A stretch of 64,000 nt of DNA from an uncultured Syntrophaceae bacterium (GCA_964523565.1 CAZGAK010000007.1:306-64305), one strand, 5' to 3'. Counted from the stretch's first letter, positions 34,791 through 45,368 are shown. The notes: generated by a model from the sequence alone, not told the origin. Program-made: numbers and translations.

Positions 34791-35218
34791 TGAAAACGGT
34801 TAAACAAATCGATGTATGGTTAAAAAATAAACCCGGCTCGCTGTCTGTTGTCAGCGATTTACTGGGTGACAACAGGATAAATATTATCGCTTTCTACGTC
34901 ACCACTCAGGGAGATGAGGGAAAGCTTCACTTTGTTGCCAATGACCCTGACAAGGCCATCAATGTCCTGAAAACGGCAGGATACAGAATAGCAGAAAAAG
35001 AAGTGATTGCATGCGAGGTACCCCACCATCCGGGCGGCATGAATACCATTCTGAGGCTGCTGAAAGGGATCGACATAAACGTGGATTATATATATCCCTG
35101 CGTTGGGACCGGCGACATTACCGTGTTGATTGTAGGAGTTGAACCGGTAAAGGAAGCCTTGAGCGTTCTTAATGACAATTGGATGCGCATACTCGGCAAT
35201 GAGCTCTACCACATGTGA
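34790..35218 (+). CDS. ACT-domain protein
   Basis: Two ACT-like beta-alpha-beta-beta-alpha-beta halves. The ATG overlaps the gamma-subunit stop (TAATG). Confidence 0.75.
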   Translation: MKTVKQIDVWLKNKPGSLSVVSDLLGDNRINIIAFYVTTQGDEGKLHFVANDPDKAINVLKTAGYRIAEKEVIACEVPHHPGGMNTILRLLKGIDINVDYIYPCVGTGDITVLIVGVEPVKEALSVLNDNWMRILGNELYHM

Positions 35219-35223
35219 TTACG

Positions 35224-35265
35224 ACTCGTTACTCATTACTCGTTGCTCAGTCCTCATTGCTAATG
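35224..35265. repeat. Heptamer tandem array, ACTCGTT family
   Basis: ACTCGTT ACTCATT ACTCGTT GCTCAGT CCTCATT GCTAATG, between the convergent ACT and rmuC genes and running into the rmuC 3' end. The same 7-mer recurs at 49042-49069. Confidence 0.8.
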
Positions 35266-36473
35266 GGGGTGTCCGTGTCGATTATTTCCGGTTCGTCCAG
35301 CGCTGCTTCAACAACGTTTCTCTGCTTTCTTAAATCTTCAATCTGCCTGAGGGAACGTTCGAGTTGATTCCGGCGGGTTGAAGTCAGCGTATTATATTCC
35401 TTCTGGGCATCCTCTATCCTTTTGCCCATCCTTTCCATTGAGTTGACAAACGCATCCCACTGTTTGTTAAACGCACCGAGGAGTGACATGATTTGAGCCG
35501 CCGTCTTTTCCAGATTGAAGTTATCTACGGCCTGCCTGATAACCGCCAGAATTGCATACAGCGTGGTGGGTGAACAGAGAATCACCTTATTCTTTAAGGC
35601 CTCATCCATAAGGGAACTGTCATTTTCATTGATGAAGGCATACACCTGTTCGTTCGGAATGAATACAATGACGTAATCAACCGTATTTTCTTCAGGGTTG
35701 ATATAATCTCTTGTTGTTACCTCTTTAACTCTATTTTTGACATCTCTTAAAAACTGACTCTTATACTTTTCCTGATCCACCTCCCCCTCCTCTTCAAGAT
35801 AACGCAGGTAATTATCGAGGGGGAATTTTACATCCATGTTTACTTTAAGGTCCTGCGGCAGAAGAAAGGTATAATCCGGACGTGTGCTTACCGTTTCCAG
35901 TGTTTTCTGTTTTATATAATTGATGCCTTCGACGAAACCGGCCAGTCTCAACACATCTTCAGCCATCCTTTCGCCCCACTGTCCGCGGACTTTTGTACTT
36001 GCCAGCGCCGCCTTCAACTGACCGGCAGTTTCCTGAAGTTTCCTGGTCTGTTCGGTAGTAAATTTTAACTGATTGGCCAGCTCACCGAATTTATGCTCCC
36101 TGTCTTTCTCAAGGTTGGTTACAAGATTTTGAACACCCTGCAAGTCTTCCCTCATCACCTCAAGAGTCTGATCAATCAGTTTTTTCTTCCCCTCCAGTTC
36201 TTTTTCACCTGTCCGGGTTTGCTTCGAAAGAGTCTCATTGGCAAGCTTCAGGAACTCCTCAGTATTCCTCGACAGGGCATCTAAGGAAAGGGCTCCGAAA
36301 GAGTCTTTGATCTTACCCATGAGAGCCTCCAGATCCTGAATTTTCTGAGATTCAGTTTCTGACACTAACTCCCGGGCAAGCGCCCTGGCGTCCTTTTGCT
36401 TCAATACATGAACAACTAATACAACGGCCGCCCCGAAAAGTGCACCAATAACAAAAATGAACAAATACTCCAT
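35247..36473 (-). CDS. rmuC: DNA recombination protein RmuC
   Basis: N-terminal TM, long coiled coil and an RmuC nuclease-like C-terminal domain (VIVFIPNE...). Confidence 0.9.
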   Translation of the reverse strand: MEYLFIFVIGALFGAAVVLVVHVLKQKDARALARELVSETESQKIQDLEALMGKIKDSFGALSLDALSRNTEEFLKLANETLSKQTRTGEKELEGKKKLIDQTLEVMREDLQGVQNLVTNLEKDREHKFGELANQLKFTTEQTRKLQETAGQLKAALASTKVRGQWGERMAEDVLRLAGFVEGINYIKQKTLETVSTRPDYTFLLPQDLKVNMDVKFPLDNYLRYLEEEGEVDQEKYKSQFLRDVKNRVKEVTTRDYINPEENTVDYVIVFIPNEQVYAFINENDSSLMDEALKNKVILCSPTTLYAILAVIRQAVDNFNLEKTAAQIMSLLGAFNKQWDAFVNSMERMGKRIEDAQKEYNTLTSTRRNQLERSLRQIEDLRKQRNVVEAALDEPEIIDTDTPISNED

Positions 36474-36543
36474 ATAAACAAATCTCCCGGATTTCCATCT
36501 TTATATTGGATTTCGCTTTGCTCAACCCAACCTGTAATCTTTT

Positions 36544-36747
36544 TCAGTTAAGTCCCAACCCGATAACCAGACCTATGGCAATACCCAAACCAATAAATAT
36601 GGAACCCACCACAATTCCTACTGCTACGTTATTTTCCGCTAAATGCCTGGAAGTATCAAAAGGTGTAACCTTATCAAATATTTTGTATCCGATCATCATA
36701 AATAGCAGCGTAAACAATGCTCCAAATATGGCATAAGCAAAATTCAG
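36544..36747 (-). CDS. DUF350-type two-TM mini-protein lacking a canonical start codon
   Basis: Reads ...NFAYAIFGALFTLLFMMIGYKIFDKVTPFDTSRHLAENNVAVGIVVGSIFIGLGIAIGLVIGLGLN*. The frame opens right after a TGA (36750-36748). The first TTG is codon 11 and the first ATG is codon 17, both inside TM1. The gene is absent from the ORF track, where the plus-strand ORF 36506-36736 is its antisense. Confidence 0.5.
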   Translation of the reverse strand: MNFAYAIFGALFTLLFMMIGYKIFDKVTPFDTSRHLAENNVAVGIVVGSIFIGLGIAIGLVIGLGLN

Positions 36748-36884
36748 TCAAAATCAGGGCCAAAGTATCTCTTTGAATACTTTGAAAAGTATCTATCATA
36801 TTTCACTACTTTATTATAGCGTTCAAAGGCCTGGGCATGGAGAGGTATGAGAAGCAATATAATGATCAGAACTTTTTTTACCAT
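36744..36884 (-). pseudogene. 46-aa signal-peptide ORF resembling the N-terminus of an SLT-type lytic transglycosylase
   Basis: RBS AGGA, then MVKKVLIIILLLIPLHAQA FERYNKVVKYDRYFSKYSKRYFGPDFD*. No catalytic domain follows, and the stop overlaps the opening of the DUF350 frame. Confidence 0.3.
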
Positions 36885-36919
36885 AATCATTCCTGAGAAC
36901 TTTTAGCCATTACGGGGCT

Positions 36920-37936
36920 TTACACGATATGCCAGGAAATAAAGCGTCTAAAAAAATCCGTCGTCTTGACAAAGATCCGTCCCCTGTAGATACCTTCCTG
37001 CTTTTCCCTCTTCTCAACCAAAAAGCCGAAATAGACACCGAAACGTTCCAGCACACGCAATTTAATGCAGTCGCAGACGATTTCGTAGGCAGGCTTGTAG
37101 GTCCTGTCAACCTCCTCCAACACCTGTGGATACGCGTCAATCAGGCAATCCGCAATGACGCTCCCATCAACATAATCCATTGCCTTCTTTTTAAGCAGAT
37201 ATAGAGAAAAAAGGAACGATCGTTGTATTATATAAAATTCCGAGTATCCATCCTGAAAACCCCAGTTAAACTCTGTCGTGAATACCTTCAATAGTTTAAG
37301 ATAATGCTCGCCGCCAAATCCTTCGTCAACAATTGCCCTTCCGTTTTTCGTAAGGCTGAAAACACCCTTTCGCTTCTTAACCCAGCCGCACATGGTAAGA
37401 ATATGACGAAGCGGCAGAATCTCTCCCATTTCTTCTTCGGACCTCATCCTCCTGAACCAGGGAAAACCCTTATTACCGTACATCTTTTCAGCCATTTCCT
37501 TGGAAAAGGCAAGGGACATATTCCCCTTCTTCGTCGCTTTCACGGGTTCCGATTCTGAAAGGGCATCTAAAAATATAAGGACACGCTCAACTGCCGGAAT
37601 CATCTGAAACTCATTCGGAGGCAATTCCACATTGAAATTCAGGATATCGGAAGTTGCATCATATGGACGGCTAAGCATCCGGTGCATCTGCTCCGGGCTT
37701 ATTCCGAAAAATTCCTGCGCCGGTTCGCGATTCTTGCCTTCCATGAAAGTCTGCAAAAACGCATTCGCCTCGTCGATGGAATCAAAATCCCGGCCTGCCA
37801 GCTCTTCTCTGATTTCATCGAATATATCCTGCGCCATACCCTGCTTGCTTGACGACTCATCCTTCCCAATACAGCAATATTTATACTTTTTCCCTGAACC
37901 GCATGGGCACAACTCATTTCTTCCTATCTTCGCCAT
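36920..37936 (-). CDS. SEC-C motif protein of unknown function
   Basis: N-terminus MAKIGRNELCPCGSGKKYKYCC (SEC-C metal-binding motif). The remaining ~315 aa are unassigned. Confidence 0.75.
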   Translation of the reverse strand: MAKIGRNELCPCGSGKKYKYCCIGKDESSSKQGMAQDIFDEIREELAGRDFDSIDEANAFLQTFMEGKNREPAQEFFGISPEQMHRMLSRPYDATSDILNFNVELPPNEFQMIPAVERVLIFLDALSESEPVKATKKGNMSLAFSKEMAEKMYGNKGFPWFRRMRSEEEMGEILPLRHILTMCGWVKKRKGVFSLTKNGRAIVDEGFGGEHYLKLLKVFTTEFNWGFQDGYSEFYIIQRSFLFSLYLLKKKAMDYVDGSVIADCLIDAYPQVLEEVDRTYKPAYEIVCDCIKLRVLERFGVYFGFLVEKREKQEGIYRGRIFVKTTDFFRRFISWHIV

Positions 37937-38025
37937 AAACCACCCCAATCTGCTTAATAACAACAAAGCAGATTTTCACGTAAGTCGCCCCAATTGATTC
38001 GGTTATGCTCACTGACGGCTTTTTG

Positions 38026-39030
38026 TCAGTTGTCCTTATTTATAAGATTAACAATTATTTTTGTTATGACATCCTTTTCCTTCGGATCACTCATGGCAAT
38101 CATCAATGTCAATGCAACTAAAGCGTTGTCTGCTATACGTTTTGTTCCGTCAGATTTATAGAGCAAACCATTCCGTTCCAGAAACCAGGTAAAGATAGCC
38201 GTGGCGATACGCTTGTTTCCATCTACAAATGAATGATTTTTTACAATGAAATAAAGAAGGTGTGCTGCTTTTTCTTCAATGCTGGGATAGAGATCTTTGC
38301 CGTCGAAAGTCTGGCAAATCGTATCCAGAGAGCTTCCAAACGACTTATCCTTTTCACGTCCAAACAGGTTGGAATCACTCAATCTTCCCCGCATTGTCTT
38401 AATAGCGTCTTTCGCTTCTTCATATGAAATTCGTTTCGCTGTACGGTCAGATACGCGGACTAATTCCAGCTTTCCATAGTCGTATCGATCAAGCGTATCC
38501 AGAGCATAGCTGAAATCACCAATAACCCTCAGGAGACCTTCAGCTTCAGACGTGGAGAGCAGTTTGCGATCAACTATATTATCGATAAGCCTGATCGATT
38601 GTTTAAGCGCTTCATATTTTTCAATCTGTGATCGTAATCTCTTTTCATTCAGCGCGTAACCCGTGACAAGATAATCTTTCAGTATTTTATTGGCCCAGAT
38701 GCGGAATTGGGTTCCCCGTAATGAATTGACACGGTATCCGACGGAAATGATTGCATCCAGATTATAGTATTCGATATTACGGGTTATCTTCCTGTCACCT
38801 TCAATTTGAACTGTTGCAAATTTTGCAACAGTTGACCCCTTTGATAACTCCCCTGTTCTGAATACATTAGAAATATGCCGCGAAACAACCGACTTGTTTC
38901 TTTGAAACAATCCTGCCATTTGATTGAGATTTAACCAAACTGTTTCTTTAATTAATTTAACCTCCAAAGACGCCTGCCCGTCTTCTGTCTGATATATGAC
39001 TATCTCACCTTTATTTATTTGTTTATTCAT
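38026..39030 (-). CDS. RhuM-family N-terminal domain fused to Fic/Doc domain
   Basis: N-terminal RhuM-like region (IVIYQTEDGQ...YYNLDAIISVGYRVNS..GTQFRIWA). The C-terminal Fic motif is of the Doc type, HSFVDGNKRIA. Confidence 0.85.
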   Translation of the reverse strand: MNKQINKGEIVIYQTEDGQASLEVKLIKETVWLNLNQMAGLFQRNKSVVSRHISNVFRTGELSKGSTVAKFATVQIEGDRKITRNIEYYNLDAIISVGYRVNSLRGTQFRIWANKILKDYLVTGYALNEKRLRSQIEKYEALKQSIRLIDNIVDRKLLSTSEAEGLLRVIGDFSYALDTLDRYDYGKLELVRVSDRTAKRISYEEAKDAIKTMRGRLSDSNLFGREKDKSFGSSLDTICQTFDGKDLYPSIEEKAAHLLYFIVKNHSFVDGNKRIATAIFTWFLERNGLLYKSDGTKRIADNALVALTLMIAMSDPKEKDVITKIIVNLINKDN

Positions 39031-39151
39031 ATGTCAGTATTACCTTTTCCATATTTGTACTTGGATTTGTAGAAAAATGTATTTTATGGTGAAGATATGC
39101 ATTTATTCCACCTTATGTGTTTTAAAACGTTTTTTTCGTGAAAAACATACC

Positions 39152-39337
39152 CTACAGCCCAAACCCCAGTAGATCCATCACCCCAAGTTCTTCTCTGCAT
39201 TGGGGGCAAAGATCATTGATGTCCTCAACGCCGATATCACGAAGAAAAATATCTGCCAGCTCCGTCGCGGGGCTGACATCCACAACATCAACCTCAGATT
39301 CCTCAAATTCTCTAAAACATCTCTTGCAGGTTTTCAT
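39152..39337 (-). CDS. Small acidic CxxC...CxxC zinc-ribbon protein
   Basis: 61 aa with CKRC near the N-terminus and CPQC near the C-terminus. The RBS is weak, and the gene lies upstream of the RhuM-Doc gene. Confidence 0.45.
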   Translation of the reverse strand: MKTCKRCFREFEESEVDVVDVSPATELADIFLRDIGVEDINDLCPQCREELGVMDLLGFGL

Positions 39338-39462
39338 TAAGTATGCTGGCTCCGGAATTCGCTAAAATGATTCAGAACTCCATCATTCTTAACAAGGTTA
39401 TATCCGTCGGCCCGGATTCTACGATCAGCTGTATACTGGCAGTAGTTGAAGCTTTTCACTTC

Positions 39463-42400
39463 TTAAACTATAGCGAGCCTTTCAGTCGTTCTAATCAACT
39501 TACCAGGCATGGGATATTTCAAGCGCCAGATAATGCTCATGGGCCTTGAACCATCATGGCTAACATAGGTGGCCGGACCCAAAAAATAATAGGGCATGTT
39601 CAGGTTATTGTTTTTTTTGTCTTCCCGGACAAAGAGTAGCACCGTGCTGCCGCGGATTTCATGATTGGTGTAGCGCTGGCCAGTGGGCGACTTTTCAGAG
39701 GTCGTACTCTGAGACTGCCAATGGAATAAGTCCTCACTTATTGCATAGTCTTCATACATGGTAGTCGGGGAATAGTCCTTATCGGTCTTGTTGAGGGTGA
39801 TAAGAAACAGATCTGCATTGATAGCGTGCATGTATTTTACACCTTCGCGCATACTGGGCTGATGTGAGATCGTCCAATGACCCAGCGCGGATAAGATTTC
39901 ATCGCGGGTATAACGTGCATGTACATATAGCGGACAAACAAAAGGCAGCTCTGGTCTATGGACAATCGTATCTGTCCTTTCATATAAGTACTTCAACAGT
40001 TCCAGGAGTTCATTATATAATACTGGATTATTATGTAGGTCGTTAAATCCTTCTGATAGACTTTCGAACCGTAGGTTTTGCCCCCAGATGGACAGAGTCA
40101 GCATGGTCATTAGCCGCTCATCCTCAATGGCCAGCCTGTCGATAGCCCCCAAATTCCCTGCCAAAATATTCAGCAGTCGTTCAAGCTGAGGGGCACAGTC
40201 ATAATGAATTATCCTGCGCAACCCTTTGCTTAGACGCTTTTCGTCGGGTTCGGAAAAATCGGATTTTGCCCCCGCCTCGACACAAAGCCGCGACCAGGAA
40301 CCACGTTTATAAACGTCATCTAACCCAAGTCCATAATAATCCAGAAAGGCAGAAAGGGAAAGCTTACAACCAGTATCATTTTGAAAGGTTGCAATTCGTT
40401 GAACAAACCTGGACCTCGTGATATTTAATAGATTTTGCTTAATATTATCCAGGACATATTTCTGGGCATATTTTTCAAGCTTGATCACGCATCCCGAAGG
40501 CAAATGCGGGAAACCTTCTTTGATCTCTTTACTAATCCTGCGGGATGTCCTACCAGTAAGCGCAAGAAAGCGCTGCTCATAGTTAAAACGCTGGTGGGCC
40601 TGCCCCACAAAATCGAGCACTGTGAGGCATTCTTTATCATCATAAAGCCGCAAGCCACGGCCTAATTGCTGCAAAAATACAATCAGACTTTCAGTAGGTC
40701 GGAGGAAGAGCACCGTGTCAATCTCGGGGATATCGATTCCTTCGTTATAAAGATCCACCACGCAAATAAAGTTTATCTTACGTTCAACAAGCCTTCTCTG
40801 GACGGTATCGCGTTTATGTGGAGATGATTCTGCTGTGAGGACGTCAGCAGGTATGTTGGCATGATTGAATCTTTTGGCCATAAAGGCGGCATGATTTTGA
40901 CTGACACAAAAACAAAGCCCACGGGAATGGTGTACATCGAGCAAGGTCTCCCTTACCTTTCTGATAACAAGCTGGGCTCTGGCATCATTGCCGGTAAACA
41001 CCTTATCGAGTTCTTTTTGATCATAGCCACCTCTACCCCAAGTCATGTTCCTTAAATCAATCGACGTATCATCAGTTATTCCGAAATATTGAAACGGACA
41101 AAGCAGCTTGCTATTTATCGCATCGGGCAGTCGTATCTCGGCTGTAATATGGTTATCAAAATATTTTACTATATCCAGGCCGTCTGATCGTTCCGGGGTA
41201 GCAGTAAGCCCCAATAAAATTTTGGGCCGAAAATGGTTCAGCAGTTGTTGATAACTTGCGGCTGCTGCATGGTGAAACTCATCTACAATGATAAAATCAT
41301 AAAAATCAGGTGGGATAATATCCCATAAGTGTCTGGCGTTGAAGCTCTGGATAGAAACAAAAAGTTGTTCAAGACGGTCGGGCTCATGATTACCTACAAG
41401 AAGCTCACCAAAATTCTGATTGCGCAATATCGTGCGGAAGATACCCCGGCTCTGTTTCAGTATTTCCTCGCGATGGGCCACAAAGAGAAGCCTATCCTGC
41501 CTGTGTTCCTTTACTGATCGCTTATAATCAAAGGCTGCAACAACCGTTTTGCCTGTTCCGGTAGCGGCAACCACCAGATTTCGGTATCGTTTGTGCAACT
41601 TGCGGTCAGCTTCAAGTTTATCTAAGATTTCTTGCTGAAAGTGATACGGAGTTATATCAAATAAAATAATGCCCTCGTTATCTTCAGTATCTCTGGCTGT
41701 ACGTTCCTTGTTCAGGGCCTGTTTCAGGCGGTCTTTTTGCGATTTATCATAAACAGCAAACTCTCGATCATTCTGGTAAGTCTCAAATGTGGCGCAAATC
41801 TTGTTCCACAGATGCTCTGACTCGTACTGGCTGATCTTGACATTCCATTCCAGACCACTGGTAAGCGCTGGGTTAGAAAGATTAGATGAACCCACATAGG
41901 CCGTACCAAAACCACTGTTGCGGTGAAACATATATGCCTTGGCATGCAACCTGGTTCGCTTTGTGTCATAGGAAACCCATAGTTGGGTGTTGGGCAAACT
42001 TTGCAGGAATTCAATTGCTTTAAAATCCGTGGCGCCCAGATATGATGTTGTGATGATCCTGAGACGGGCATGCTTTTGCCTGGTGAATTCTTCTAATTCA
42101 TCCCTGAGTATTCGAATCCCACTCCATTTGATGAACGAGCATAGGATATCAACCCTGTCTGCATTGAGTATTTCCTGTTGCAACTGGGATACAAGGCTGG
42201 GGTCAGATGATGTGGCGGTAAGCAGACATCCAAAAGAAAGCGGTGTGTCCGGCCTTGGATAAATGGGAAGCATCGGGTCGTGTACTTCAAGCAGACGCTC
42301 TGCCGGCGATAAAAGCATGTCTGATTTATTATATCTGGCATTGTGTCTTTGAATTATCTCCAACAGATCATTATAGAGAGCTATATGATCCTCAGCATTT

Positions 42401-42576
42401 ATATCGGCCAGAGATCGGGCCAATATCCGTTGCATATGTCGAGCAATGATTTGGTGGCTTTCGCCAGGGTCTACTTTTCCGATCGTCACATCATGGTTCT
42501 GATTCTTGGCACCCTCAATTGCATTTTTCATAGAGTGGCTTATCAGTTCCTCATATATCCCGGGTTTTAATGTCAT
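39463..42576 (-). CDS. PLD-family nuclease / SF2 helicase / DUF3427 protein (SauUSI-like type IV restriction architecture)
   Basis: HKD motif LHAKAYMF...GTAYVGSSNLS and helicase motifs AATGTGKT, VDEFHH, LTATPER, QQLGRGLR. The C-terminus LFLITLNKTDKDYSPTTMYEDYAISEDLFHWQSQS...LLFVRE is recognised as DUF3427. ATG 42576 has RBS GAGGAG, and TTG 42591 is an alternative start. Confidence 0.8.
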   Translation of the reverse strand: MTLKPGIYEELISHSMKNAIEGAKNQNHDVTIGKVDPGESHQIIARHMQRILARSLADINAEDHIALYNDLLEIIQRHNARYNKSDMLLSPAERLLEVHDPMLPIYPRPDTPLSFGCLLTATSSDPSLVSQLQQEILNADRVDILCSFIKWSGIRILRDELEEFTRQKHARLRIITTSYLGATDFKAIEFLQSLPNTQLWVSYDTKRTRLHAKAYMFHRNSGFGTAYVGSSNLSNPALTSGLEWNVKISQYESEHLWNKICATFETYQNDREFAVYDKSQKDRLKQALNKERTARDTEDNEGIILFDITPYHFQQEILDKLEADRKLHKRYRNLVVAATGTGKTVVAAFDYKRSVKEHRQDRLLFVAHREEILKQSRGIFRTILRNQNFGELLVGNHEPDRLEQLFVSIQSFNARHLWDIIPPDFYDFIIVDEFHHAAAASYQQLLNHFRPKILLGLTATPERSDGLDIVKYFDNHITAEIRLPDAINSKLLCPFQYFGITDDTSIDLRNMTWGRGGYDQKELDKVFTGNDARAQLVIRKVRETLLDVHHSRGLCFCVSQNHAAFMAKRFNHANIPADVLTAESSPHKRDTVQRRLVERKINFICVVDLYNEGIDIPEIDTVLFLRPTESLIVFLQQLGRGLRLYDDKECLTVLDFVGQAHQRFNYEQRFLALTGRTSRRISKEIKEGFPHLPSGCVIKLEKYAQKYVLDNIKQNLLNITRSRFVQRIATFQNDTGCKLSLSAFLDYYGLGLDDVYKRGSWSRLCVEAGAKSDFSEPDEKRLSKGLRRIIHYDCAPQLERLLNILAGNLGAIDRLAIEDERLMTMLTLSIWGQNLRFESLSEGFNDLHNNPVLYNELLELLKYLYERTDTIVHRPELPFVCPLYVHARYTRDEILSALGHWTISHQPSMREGVKYMHAINADLFLITLNKTDKDYSPTTMYEDYAISEDLFHWQSQSTTSEKSPTGQRYTNHEIRGSTVLLFVREDKKNNNLNMPYYFLGPATYVSHDGSRPMSIIWRLKYPMPGKLIRTTERLAIV

Positions 42577-42593
42577 ATACTCCTCGATCAATA

Positions 42594-43127
42594 TTAAATG
42601 GTTCTGCTATTAAGAGCATCCATAAAAGGAGGTGCCTGCAGCCGTGCAGCTTCTCTAAGTGTTAAACGCCTGGATCGACCTATAACCGAATAAGCCTGAC
42701 AGGGTGGCCCCCCGATTAAAACCCATGTTTTTTTCCCGCAGAGTGATTTTTCAATTCGAGCGTCAACCTCTTCGGAAGAAGTTTCTCCCAAGGTTGCCCG
42801 CCAGGCTTCCTGCGAGGCAAGTTCAGCTTCATGGGGATACTTTTTGAACAGTTGAGTACGGGAGATTTCTCCACGAAGATGCATATAGTATTCGGCAGGT
42901 ACTGTTTTAGCAGAAAACTGTCTGAAAAAACTTCGGAGTTCAAGTGTCTTGTGTGCTTCGGGCTCTTTCTCGATGGAAAGGCAGATTTTGAAAACAGGAG
43001 GATCATTGTTGCGTTTTAATGCAGAAAAACCTTCTCCCAGGCCACCTGGCCCGGCAAAAAGATCAATGATTGGAATTATGTCATTTTTCATTGGCTCAAA
43101 TAGTGTAAATAAAAATCGAAACACCAT
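42594..43127 (-). pseudogene. C5-cytosine DNA methyltransferase remnant (motifs I-IV plus motif-X-like tail only)
   Basis: Contains DLFAGPGGLGEGF (motif I) and GGPPCQAYS (motif IV), then VIGRSR|RLTLREAARLQ and a stop. Motifs VI-IX and the TRD are absent, and the next gene starts 2-17 nt later. ATG 43091 is an alternative start. Confidence 0.7.
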
Positions 43128-43155
43128 CCCCGTGGACTGTTATGTTATTATTTCC

Positions 43156-43500
43156 TCATCCGAAAAAACAACCGTATGGATCTGTATCTATCTCTGCAAT
43201 CAACTCAGCAAGATATCGAGACGACTTAAGTGGGCCGTACGCGTGCCACTTCATATTGGCTCTTTGCCAGAATAGCTTCCAGACATTCTGGCTCCTTACA
43301 AATTTGAGTTTTGCGCAGGGCATCCCGGTTTGTTCATTTGGATCATTCCATTGAGGGCGAATTTCAAAAAGGATTACATCCTGATTTTCGATTTTATATT
43401 CATATCGCAATTTGTCTCTGATAGACTCAGGCGCCCTTTTTTTACATAACGCACCAACAAATTTGTTTATCTTGTATATCTCTATCTCTGTGAATACCAT
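43156..43500 (-). CDS. DUF3024 protein
   Basis: Family pattern IRPQW.DP....P.AK..FV.S...W.LFW.R...KWH.Y....DP.GCFFG, 114 aa. Confidence 0.7.
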   Translation of the reverse strand: MVFTEIEIYKINKFVGALCKKRAPESIRDKLRYEYKIENQDVILFEIRPQWNDPNEQTGMPCAKLKFVRSQNVWKLFWQRANMKWHAYGPLKSSRYLAELIAEIDTDPYGCFFG

Positions 43501-43530
43501 AATTTACTCTTTTCGTTTATAACATCTGCA

Positions 43531-43570
43531 TAAAATGAAAAACCCCGCCTCTGTTTAAGAGATACGGGGT
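43531..43570 (-). terminator. Intrinsic terminator-like hairpin 30-70 nt upstream of the DUF3024 start
   Basis: Minus strand reads ACCCCG-(internal loop, AGAG/CTCT, 5-nt loop)-CGGGGT followed by TTTTCATTTT. Confidence 0.6.
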
Positions 43571-43676
43571 CTTGTCACAATTATCTGCCATCTTCAGAGC
43601 CTTCTCGTGTTTAAGGAGAAAAGATCATTTGTTGTTTAGTGCATGGCACCCTTTTGTTTTTTGTTAAGACTTTTGC

Positions 43677-43705
43677 ATATTCAACAAAAAGCCGTGAAAT
43701 GTCAA
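43677..43705 (-). promoter_or_regulatory. Candidate sigma70 promoter inside the vapC-DUF3024 spacer
   Basis: Minus strand has TTGACA, a 17-nt spacer and GAATAT. It would start a ~140-nt RNA ending at the 43531-43570 hairpin. Confidence 0.35.
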
Positions 43706-43723
43706 GGGATATCAATATCTGTG

Positions 43724-43797
43724 GTTCAAGGTTCAAGGAAAAAGGAGCAAGGATATAAATACAATTTTGAATTCTTAATTCTTAATTTTGAATTAAC
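43724..43797. repeat. Two adjacent heptamer arrays (GTTCAAG family and AATTCTT family)
   Basis: GTTCAAG GTTCAAG GAAAAAG GAGCAAG GATATAA, then AATTTTG AATTCTT AATTCTT AATTTTG AATTAAC. Confidence 0.8.
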
Positions 43798-43898
43798 AGA
43801 CAAGGGAAAAACAAAGGATCATGGGAGTGCTCACAAAAAATTACCGGCAGGCATAACTCTGACACTGCCGTTAAATGTATCATTGCCCTTTTCAAGTG

Positions 43899-44303
43899 TT
43901 ATCTGATCCACTTCACATTGACCAGGTGCTCAACATGTTTGAATTCCGGATCACCGGTTACAATGACTGCAGAATTCTCCAATGCGCAGGCCACGACAAA
44001 ACAGTCGGCATATGCAATAGGGTATTCCGCCTTTATCTCTGCTGCCTTTAAAACAAGTGAATTTGGCGCGGGCAGAATTTCAAATGTAAGCTGGTTAATT
44101 CGGCCTAATATTTCCAATTTCTTCTGGTCTCCAAAGCGCCTCTTCACCGTATAGATAATCTCACCCATGTTGATGACACAGAGAAGGGGTTTGTTGCCGC
44201 GTTCTTTCGTTTTTATGAGAATATCTTCCACAATATCAGATCCGATTTCATCCTGAAAAAAGGCAAGGAGCGCGTGGCTATCAAAAAGATATGGACTGTT
44301 CAT
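43899..44303 (-). CDS. vapC: PIN-domain toxin (VapC family)
   Basis: N-terminus YLFDSHALLAF, a conserved Asp near the C-terminus (VTGDPEF), 134 aa. Confidence 0.85.
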   Translation of the reverse strand: MNSPYLFDSHALLAFFQDEIGSDIVEDILIKTKERGNKPLLCVINMGEIIYTVKRRFGDQKKLEILGRINQLTFEILPAPNSLVLKAAEIKAEYPIAYADCFVVACALENSAVIVTGDPEFKHVEHLVNVKWIR

Positions 44304-44531
44304 TTATGCAAAGTCCTTTTTTCTTTCATGGAGAAGTTCCACAGATAAAGACGGCTTTTTCGGAAGGCATCCCCTGGCGTCCTGCACGGGATTTTTCCCC
44401 GGAGGAACAAGATAGATAAAATTACCATACTCAAAAATATTGATGGAAGAACCCGGACGGATCCCGTATTTCTTCCTCAGTTTTGCAGGAATTACTATCT
44501 GGCCTTTCGCCAATACTTTAACAGTATTCAT
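44304..44531 (-). CDS. vapB: AbrB/SpoVT-type antitoxin (VapB)
   Basis: MNTVKVLAKGQIVIPAKLRKKYGI looped-hinge-helix motif. RBS GGGGA lies upstream of internal ATG 44531, and the gene abuts vapC. Confidence 0.8.
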   Translation of the reverse strand: MNTVKVLAKGQIVIPAKLRKKYGIRPGSSINIFEYGNFIYLVPPGKNPVQDARGCLPKKPSLSVELLHERKKDFA

Positions 44532-44630
44532 GATGAGTTCCCCTATCATGTTAAACATTTTTCCGTAATGTATAACCAATTTAAAGAAATGTCAAACGGA
44601 ATGTCTTTGATTCGGGGTAAGAGACAAGGA

Positions 44631-44668
44631 GTAAAAGAAAAGGGGTTGCGGATTCATCCACAACCCCT
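44631..44668 (-). terminator. Rho-independent terminator after tRNA-Pro(TGG)
   Basis: Minus strand reads AGGGGTTG-tggatgaatccg-CAACCCCT followed by TTTTCTTTT. Confidence 0.65.
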
Positions 44669-44677
44669 TGATTTTAC

Positions 44678-44754
44678 TGGTCGGGGCGGCAGGATTTGAA
44701 CCTGCGACATCTTGCTCCCAAAGCAAGCGCGCTGCCAGGCTGCGCTACGCCCCG
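44678..44754 (-). tRNA. tRNA-Pro(TGG)
   Basis: Acceptor CGGGGCG/CGCCCCG, anticodon stem CTTGC/GCAAG with loop TTTGGGA, T-loop TTCAAAT, encoded CCA. Confidence 0.95.
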
Positions 44755-44771
44755 ATACAGGTGCATCTAAA

Positions 44772-45368
44772 TTATTTAATACTTCGTTGCAAGCTTTTTT
44801 TCAGTTTATTGAAGGCTTCAGCCCGGTGACTGATTCGATTTTTAACATCAGGGCTGAGTTCGGCAACGGTACAGCCAAATTCAGGAACGATAAATACAGG
44901 GTCATAACCAAAACCTTCGTTCCCTGCAGGGTTTATGGATATCTTTCCCCGTAATGTTCCTTCAAATGATTCAGATGTTCCATCCGTGTTGAAAAGAACA
45001 AGAACACATTTAAAGGCAGCCCCCCTCTTTTCCATGGGAACGTCTTTTAATTCTTCTAACAGTTTCCGGATGTTTTTTTCATCATCCGCATCGGGTCCCG
45101 AGTATCTTGATGAATGAACTCCAGGCCTTCCTCCCAGGAAATCAACCTCCAAACCCGAATCATCGGCAATGACTACCTGACCGGTATGTTCCGAAACAAC
45201 CTTAGTCTTTTTTAAGGCATTTTCGAAAAAGGTTTTTCCGTCTTCTATAATTTCAGGGATGTCCGGATAATCACTTAGTGATAAGACTGCTATATTATAT
45301 TCTTCAAGTAATGCTTTAAGTTCTCTAAGTTTTCCCTTGTTTTCTGTGGCAAATACTATTTTCCTCAG
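44772..45368 (-). CDS. rdgB: Non-canonical purine NTP pyrophosphatase RdgB/HAM1, apparent CTG start
   Basis: Reading upstream of the track ORF gives (L)[20 protein letters not shown]...[22 protein letters not shown]. No ATG, GTG or TTG lies in frame between the upstream TAA and 45152. A CTG at 45368 has GGAG 7 nt upstream and overlaps the rph stop. Confidence 0.8.

Follow-up and report, generated by a model that had tools for sequence, protein, structure and literature searches.

A SauUSI-family type IV restriction gene, probably standing alone, behind a chimeric methylase remnant in a Syntrophaceae defense island

We analyzed a window of 64,000 nucleotides (nt) from an uncultured Syntrophaceae bacterium (GCA_964523565.1, CAZGAK010000007.1:306-64305), focusing on three adjacent minus-strand genes for a DUF3024 protein, a short homolog of cytosine-C5 methyltransferases (methylases) and a large PLD nuclease/helicase/DUF3427 protein. 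The locus is probably a mosaic, composed of an intact, stand-alone enzyme of the SauUSI family of type IV restriction proteins, the non-functional wreck of a methylase gene and an independent DUF3024 unit. An earlier reading of this sequence (the original prediction) had described three co-directional minus-strand genes with short gaps, and the open reading frame (ORF) calls agree: 43500-43156 (114 amino acids, aa), 43127-42594 (177 aa) and 42591-39463 (1042 aa from a TTG). All of the motifs that it quoted were found in the large protein (LHAKAYMF, GSSNLS, AATGTGKT, DEFHH, TATPER and QQLGRGLR), and the methylase homolog has FAGPGG and GPPCQ. Close homologs of the large gene have in common a start at the ATG at 42576 (MTLKPGIY, 1037 aa), which lies 3' of a GAGGAG and, judging from this comparison, is most likely the real start. 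The intergenic gaps are 28 nt between the DUF3024 gene and the methylase remnant and 17 nt between the remnant and the enzyme gene (counted from ATG 42576); the latter spacer (42577-42593, minus strand) carries the putative ribosome-binding site GAGGAG, and the same spacing occurs in four related loci (L029, L030, L131 and L132). A consensus terminator scan predicted none between the three genes (promoter-like sites in the same scan were fewer than in shuffled sequence), and this, together with the short gaps, makes co-transcription of the three genes plausible.

The large protein (39463-42576, minus strand, 1037 aa) is intact and is organized as a PLD nuclease, a helicase-like ATPase of superfamily 2 (SF2), a coupler and a DUF3427/SRA-like target recognition domain (TRD). 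The SauUSI-type architecture that had been proposed for it is borne out by Pfam (ResIII, 1.7e-34; Helicase_C, 1.8e-11; PLDc_2, 1.8e-6; DUF3427, 5.7e-28), by PADLOC, by the closest solved structure and by an alignment of the C-terminus to SauUSI. The PADLOC profile mREase_IV (PDLC03659) matches with an E-value of 3e-238 over protein residues 113-1031 and profile positions 16-934 of 945, and SauUSI (7clg), the closest solved structure, aligns over residues 130-723 (E-value 5e-87). Taken by itself, the C-terminal third matches SauUSI residues 759-918 (E-value 4e-6, 28 bits) and thus overlaps the recognition domain of SauUSI (residues 806-953), which has an SRA fold (PMC7913695). These matches support the assignment of the large protein to the SauUSI family of type IV enzymes.

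The PLD/HKD nuclease domain (41818-42108, minus strand) is recognized by PLDc_2 (28.2 bits, cut-off 27) and RE_NgoFVII (26.2 bits, cut-off 23.8), with the HxK motif LHAKAYMF at 41949-41926 and GSSNLS at 41892-41875. It is followed by the SF2 helicase-like ATPase (40648-41655, minus strand; ResIII and Helicase_C), in which motif I (AATGTGKT) lies at 41568-41545, motif II (DEFHH) at 41283-41269, motif III (TATPER) at 41205-41188 and motif VI (QQLGRGLR) at 40671-40648. DUF3427 (PF11907; 39496-40062, minus strand), the counterpart of the SRA-like domain of SauUSI that reads 5-methylcytosine (5mC), scores 98.4 bits (cut-off 27.7), with the match covering only profile positions 85-275 of 280. The N-terminal ~110 residues (42252-42576, minus strand) have no Pfam match and lie outside the SauUSI and PADLOC alignments; this region is conserved in relatives down to 42% identity, and tblastn matches in L031-L040 begin at residues 1-6. 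The closest relatives of the enzyme gene come from genome bins of Desulfobacteraceae and Candidatus Desulfaltia. The ratio of nonsynonymous to synonymous substitution rates (dN/dS) is 0.11-0.12 in comparisons with three close relatives (L028, L029 and L030), and the gene is identical across the sampled population. The enzyme is a new member of a known family, and its gene is under purifying selection.

Judged by homology, given the type IV mechanism of SauUSI (PMC3141236, PMC7913695) and the role of DUF3427 as a modification sensor (PMC6765204), the DUF3427/SRA-like domain would read 5mC or 5-hydroxymethylcytosine (5hmC) in foreign DNA. Recognition of the modified base would switch on the SF2 ATPase and ATP-driven translocation along the DNA, and the modified foreign DNA would be cleaved by the N-terminal PLD nuclease as a dimer, with the enzyme acting alone, as SauUSI does.

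The 177-aa ORF had been predicted to be a gutted C5-methylase with its S-adenosylmethionine (AdoMet)-binding and catalytic-Cys motifs and without its target-recognition half. Pfam and motif comparison agree with that description, but it is no simple truncation: a motif IX stub is also kept, and the ORF is a chimera of two alleles. Pfam DNA_methylase (PF00145) matches at an E-value of 5e-11 over N-terminal profile positions only, with the best stretch at positions 3-40, and the best PADLOC match is DrmMII (PDLC02649, 8e-27). The ORF passes from motif IV (GRSRR) directly to motif IX (LTLREAARLQ) and stops 12 codons further on. In comparison with intact L069, L062, L001 and L002, it is without motifs V-VIII, the target-recognition region and motif X, such that the C5-methyltransferase motif set is reduced to motifs I and IV plus a degraded stub of motif IX. 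Motif X is part of the AdoMet pocket of C5-methylases. Because motifs V-VIII, the recognition region and motif X are missing, the remnant should be unable to methylate, and its motif content identifies the 177-aa ORF as a methylase pseudogene remnant that is predicted to be non-functional as a methylase.

Most of the remnant (42670-43127, minus strand) is the N-terminal part of an A-type allele of a Dcm/DrmMII-like C5-methylase, with motif I (FAGPGG) at 43058-43041, motif IV (GPPCQ) at 42710-42696 and the methylase family's own start at ATG 43091. Up to 42670 this part has 88% nt identity to an intact ~530-aa methylase at a methylase-Vsr locus (L069), while identity to the N-terminal part of the B-type allele in L131 is 58%, with synonymous sites saturated. 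The A-type part ends at a recombination or deletion joint, GRSR/R, which sits in a 7-nt near-identical stretch, T[C/G]CAGAA. The tail (42594-42675, minus strand) travels with the enzyme gene; from 42675 it matches L029, L131 and L132 at 85-92%. It consists of the motif IX stub RRLTLREAARLQAPP and an abnormal ending, FMDALNSRTI-stop, in place of the normal motif X ending (canonical methylase ends were read from L001, L002 and L069). Three otherwise invariant residues of motif IX are replaced in the stub of the window (V to L, T to A, F to P), which reads LTLREAARLQAPP. The A and B alleles are 83% identical at motif IX vs. 58% elsewhere.

The same enzyme gene, at 90-94% nt identity, was recovered in a total of six lineages including that of the window, all from metagenome assemblies. 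A search with the first 125 residues of the enzyme returned only three close fragments and led to two of these lineages (L131 and L132). In 6/6 lineages the enzyme gene is directly preceded by a methylase or part of one, and motif X is missing from every copy. In five of the six, the methylase sequence has the ending RLQTFP/FMDSLNSRTI-stop, by which motif X is cut off, followed by 17 nt and the ATG of the enzyme gene. L131 (793-2271) retains a 492-aa methylase ORF with motifs I, IV, VI, VIII and IX, for which profile alignments stop 35-58 positions short, unlike those of a canonical methylase (L062) that reach the profile end. L132 (35-358) has at least 107 C-terminal residues of a methylase before the contig ends, the window has the 177-aa chimera, L029 (6752-6982) has a 76-aa C-terminal stub behind unrelated genes and L030 has a 60-aa product of two deletions. 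L028 has lost the common ending by deletion, and its methylase is reduced to a 19-aa scrap of motif IV (88% identity to L131) just upstream of the ATG. Thus, among the lineages that have the enzyme gene in common, the mini-methylase is conserved neither in length (492, at least 107, 177, 76, 60 and 19 aa) nor in sequence.

Lesions in the enzyme gene complement this series. L131 is interrupted after residue 198, L132 has a 77-bp deletion, L028 a nonsense mutation at codon 286 and L030 a frameshift near residue 989. L131 and L132 have therefore kept the methylase body and have a broken enzyme, the window and L029 have an intact enzyme and a gutted methylase, and L028 and L030 have lost both. That each lineage has at most one intact gene would be explained by incompatibility between a methylase and a methyl-dependent nuclease, and we infer such incompatibility as the cause of the wreck; for six metagenome-assembled lineages, the one-survivor pattern is only suggestive. 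The original prediction had offered two readings of the remnant, the scar of a conflict between a methylase and a type IV enzyme, or a repurposed SAM-binding accessory subunit. The first is supported by the finding of six decay states in front of one enzyme gene in six related lineages. The second is not supported: L029, in which the enzyme gene is equally intact, keeps only the 76-aa stub, and the 177-aa ORF is not a conserved partner because sister lineages with an intact enzyme keep quite different scraps.

A sequence of events that would yield this arrangement begins with the joining of the enzyme gene to the 3' end of a methylase gene, which would have removed motif X and left the enzyme gene to travel with a motif IX stub. 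The stub-plus-enzyme unit would later have met a second, deeply divergent allele and been joined, at the 7-nt microhomology, to the first ~152 codons of that allele. The remnant would then be at most a leader through which the enzyme gene is transcribed.

Surveys of the two gene families are in line with an enzyme that stands alone. Enzyme relatives were collected from 21 loci, 15 of which are more distant (33-54% identity), and none of these 15 has a C5-methylase or DUF3024 gene within 7 kb. Their neighbors include genes for HTH, sigma factor, aminotransferase, sulfatase, response regulator, SLFN helicase, HNH, HIT and NERD proteins. The enzyme gene is therefore without a cognate protective methylase in 15/15 relatives, the methylase of the window is a wreck, and no PPCQ motif occurs in the 64-kb window other than that of the remnant. 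For the methylase family, 80 metagenome loci were fetched with their flanks. The methylase ORF is intact in 78/80 (median 513 aa), Vsr is adjacent in ~56/80, and neither the enzyme nor DUF3024 was found at any of the 80. We also considered, and rejected, a family of short methylases. The best 120 methylase matches are all ≤305 aa, but these are mostly on short contigs, whereas 78 of the 80 flanked loci have intact ORFs of ~513 aa; the short methylases on long contigs (L001, L002, L049 and L050) are frameshifted or truncated copies.

Some of the enzyme relatives adjoin a second, 30%-identical PLD-helicase paralog (L034, 670-4392, minus strand; L037, 10961-13423, plus strand), whose L034 copy is a fusion with a HIT domain at the N-terminus and a peptidase S24 domain at the C-terminus. 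Others adjoin HIT, HNH and NERD genes (genes upstream of the enzyme in L041 and L043). In the two most distant relatives (33-36%), L046 (6159-6842) and L047 (5147-6136), a class I SAM methyltransferase (Methyltransf_25/11, not C5) is encoded immediately upstream.

The DUF3024 gene (43156-43500, minus strand) is an independent single-gene unit. Its assignment in the original prediction stands, with full-length matches to Pfam DUF3024 (PF11225; E-value 3e-34, 118 bits, positions 2-112 of 112) and to PADLOC PDC-S43 (PDLC05018; E-value 3e-40, positions 1-115 of 115); it is thus already catalogued as a defense candidate, while a literature search with the term DUF3024 found no papers using it. A ~580-bp unit comprising ~200 nt of upstream sequence, the gene itself and ~25 nt downstream is conserved at 83-85% identity in L003, L004 and L020 (window 43707-43118). 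The upstream region that travels with the gene (43501-43707, minus strand) includes a terminator-like hairpin (ACCCCG...CGGGGT plus a T run, 43570-43535, minus strand) ~35 nt before the DUF3024 start; it is kept in 4/5 DUF3024 loci, with some compensatory changes, and might insulate the unit from upstream transcription. Contexts of the gene, six in all, differ widely. It lies beside an rve transposase and a HEPN-SNF2 gene in L003, in front of RadC/type I restriction-modification (RM)/GmrSD genes in L004, behind a STAND-cyclase gene in L006-L011 and between a Fic-like remnant and an alcohol dehydrogenase gene in L020-L027. L030 and L004 have a 4HBT-DUF3024 locus in common with different downstream cargo, i.e., the enzyme unit in L030 and the RadC/type I RM/GmrSD genes in L004. 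Between the window and L030, synonymous divergence (dS) is 1.2 for DUF3024 and 0.23-0.24 for the methylase start and the enzyme gene, an approximately fivefold difference, with the change inside the 28-nt spacer. The conserved unit, its differing contexts and the jump in dS together indicate that DUF3024 is an independent unit.

How the three genes relate to each other can be explained in other ways. A genuine three-gene defense system, with DUF3024 and the mini-methylase as accessory subunits or regulators, would fit the tight co-directional spacing without a predicted terminator, the invariance of the trio in contigs of one population, the status of DUF3024 as defense candidate PDC-S43 (10.1101/2024.01.29.577857) and the identical gene order in L030 (DUF3024, stub, enzyme). 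However, the population contigs are 99.8-100% identical and were counted as one observation, the stub of L030 is a different (60-aa) deletion product, and L028, L029, L131 and L132 have the enzyme without DUF3024, which is itself ~5 times more diverged than the adjacent unit and sits in four unrelated contexts. The original prediction had raised DUF3024/mini-methylase/enzyme as a possible system and suggested a survey of gene neighborhoods for co-occurrence; that survey went against the trio, which is absent from the 15/15 enzyme loci and 80/80 methylase loci, occurs only in the population of the window and, with a different stub, in L030, while DUF3024 appears in four other contexts. We consider a three-gene system very improbable. 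A number of other observations do weigh against the mosaic, beginning with the signature of selection on the methylase. The C-terminal part of L131 differs mostly at third codon positions (by codon position, 4, 3 and 16 differences from L132, and 3, 5 and 13 from L029; dN/dS ~0.1), L131 keeps an intact 492-codon ORF despite its abnormal tail before the enzyme gene, and the N-terminal part of the window remnant has a dN/dS of 0.16 relative to intact L069, with no stop or frameshift in 154 codons. By these measures, methylase bodies without motif X seem to have been constrained by purifying selection up to the recent past. Also, an independent 218-aa mini-methylase (P0003; JGI 3300075153, a 1068-bp contig, gene at 64-720), 54% identical to that of the window, joins motifs I-IV to the sequence before motif IX and stops just after FPDNYF, with the next gene starting 9 nt downstream. 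These features would suit an ancestral two-gene module, in which a motif-X-less methylase-like protein (as in L131) was paired with the SauUSI-like enzyme, either in a regulatory capacity, as a factor for specificity or loading, or as a methylase whose own specificity did not overlap; the window would be a recently decayed copy in which the enzyme is now alone. The motif-X-removing junction in 5/6 lineages, on two deeply divergent methylase alleles, and the frequent proximity of DUF3427 proteins to DNA methylases in defense islands (PMC6765204) can be read in the same way. Yet the enzyme relatives at 33-54% identity never occur with a methylase, and no sampled lineage has both genes intact. 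The part that motif X plays in the AdoMet pocket also argues against such a module. The selection signal itself can be read in three ways, each of them possible: gutting was recent in every lineage; recombination at the conserved motif IX brings intact alleles from the population together with stub-plus-enzyme alleles time and again; or the motif-X-less methylase beside the enzyme retained some function. In the window and L030, the non-coding spacer and the leader are almost identical, more alike than neutral divergence predicts, which favors recent recombination rather than long-term selection and so also speaks against the two-gene module. Overall, we regard that module as unlikely.

Further points against the mosaic concern the enzyme. 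Its gene is broken in 4/6 related lineages (some lesions may be assembly errors), the PLD motif reads HxK(x)4H instead of the usual HxK(x)4E/D (SauUSI has E at this position), identity of the recognition domain to SauUSI is low (28 bits), and dependence on 5mC/5hmC is deduced by homology. The lesions and the PLD motif would be expected if the entire locus, large enzyme included, were inactive debris in a decaying defense island. That the 1037-codon ORF of the window is intact with all helicase and PLD motifs, has a dN/dS of ~0.11 and is identical across the sampled population makes this improbable. It is comparably doubtful that the SauUSI-like gene spreads as a cassette, with the motif IX stub steering it into methylase genes of the Dcm-Vsr family and removing motif X, or that the motif-X-less body is kept as a partner of the nuclease; if either were true, there would be a physical link between a nuclease gene and the inactivation, or re-use, of the enzyme class whose product the nuclease attacks. 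We rejected a classical RM system, in which the methylase protects against the enzyme, since the relatives stand alone and the methylase of the window is dead while the enzyme is intact. The mosaic of an intact enzyme, a methylase wreck and a separate DUF3024 unit is therefore the explanation that we favor.

Comparison with described systems places each part of the mosaic. Like SauUSI (7CLG; PMC3141236, PMC7913695), the enzyme is a single polypeptide with an N-terminal PLD nuclease, an SF2 ATPase, a helical linker and a C-terminal DUF3427/SRA-like domain, and its relatives lack a cognate methylase. It differs in being ~85 residues longer, with the extra conserved N-terminal region of ~110 residues, in fitting the PADLOC profile PDLC03659 (3e-238) better than PDLC03658 (2e-91), in the low similarity of the recognition domain and in its host, which is Desulfobacterales-like and belongs to a sulfate-reducer-like lineage. 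CglI and NgoAVII also combine a PLD nuclease, an SF2 ATPase and a C5-methylase gene in one locus, but those systems are built from several subunits, use a B3 domain for recognition and depend on an active methylase (PMC7913695), whereas here the nuclease and ATPase are fused to DUF3427 and the methylase is apparently dead. The N-terminal part of the remnant, which spans motifs I and IV and the insert, shares 55-67% identity with members of the Dcm-Vsr C5-methylases that have a long insert between motifs I and IV (PADLOC DrmMII). Unlike these, the remnant keeps only 137 of ~513 residues plus a motif IX stub of 13 residues, combines two alleles as a chimera and is accompanied by neither vsr nor any other DISARM gene. 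Membership in DISARM class 2 was considered based on the DrmMII match and discarded: no Drm partner (DrmA/B/C/E) was found among the five proteins scanned, and the usual partner of the family is Vsr. PDC-S43 is an untested 'guilt-by-embedding' defense candidate in PADLOC (Payne et al., 10.1101/2024.01.29.577857). The DUF3024 protein matches it over its full length (3e-40) and is encoded in a defense island directly before restriction genes; what differs here is that the gene moves independently of the enzyme, in a ~580-bp unit that includes an upstream region of its own.

Documented conflicts of a methylase with a methyl-dependent nuclease include those of McrBC with incoming methylases (PMC2614495, PMC2993543) and of PcaRCI with PcaRCII (PMC8989522). 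As in those cases, a single genome has genes for a nuclease that depends on methylation and for a C5-methylase, of which only one is still functional. The known outcome is cell death or epigenetic silencing of the nuclease, whereas here the methylase is truncated at its junction with the putatively conflicting nuclease gene. The value of the locus lies in the comparative series, with one nuclease gene, one methylase family, six stages of decay, two divergent alleles and the same junction in the five lineages in which it is preserved. The series illustrates how defense islands are rebuilt by recombination and suggests that a methyl-dependent nuclease and a methylase gene, once together, leave at most one survivor. 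A cassette that targets methylase genes, or a second role for a motif-X-less methylase, would be new; the present data show neither.

The locus is part of an island of defense and toxin-antitoxin genes bounded by tRNA-Pro and rmuC. From tRNA-Pro, the order is MazE/PIN, DUF3024, the remnant, the enzyme, a 61-aa CxxC protein, a RhuM-Fic protein (PDC-S23), a SEC-C protein and rmuC. The tRNA-Pro(TGG) gene (44678-44754, minus strand) was the sole above-threshold Rfam match in a scan of 39000-44800. A direct repeat of its 3' end was sought in 35000-45200 and not found, so no att-type border can be assigned, and no integrase was found near this edge of the variable region. The tRNA gene is adjoined, at the edge of the variable region, by a MazE/AbrB-type antitoxin and PIN toxin pair (43899-44579, minus strand). 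The window is 100% identical to a 222-kb JGI metagenome contig (L012) over 12 kb, and copies of the locus with 99.8-100% identity were found on at least eight contigs (reported 24), all from one population.

Downstream of the enzyme gene, at a distance of 125 nt, lies the 61-aa ORF (39152-39337, minus strand), which has two CxxC pairs (zinc-ribbon-like) and no match in Pfam or NCBIfam. Homology to L030 runs on through this ORF (to 39150), while homology to L028 and L029 ends at the enzyme stop codon. The next gene (38026-39030, minus strand) encodes a 334-aa RhuM-family/Fic-DOC fusion with a full-length match to the PADLOC candidate PDC-S23 (2e-137). It is followed by a gene for a 348-aa protein (36920-37966, minus strand), in which the only recognizable feature is an N-terminal SEC-C metal-binding motif (residues 16-32). 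Two variants within the population differ from the window in this part of the island: in L015 only 168 aa of the RhuM-Fic protein remain and different genes (AAA_14/DUF4143) come after it, and in L016 an SLT-domain gene is inserted between the SEC-C gene and rmuC.

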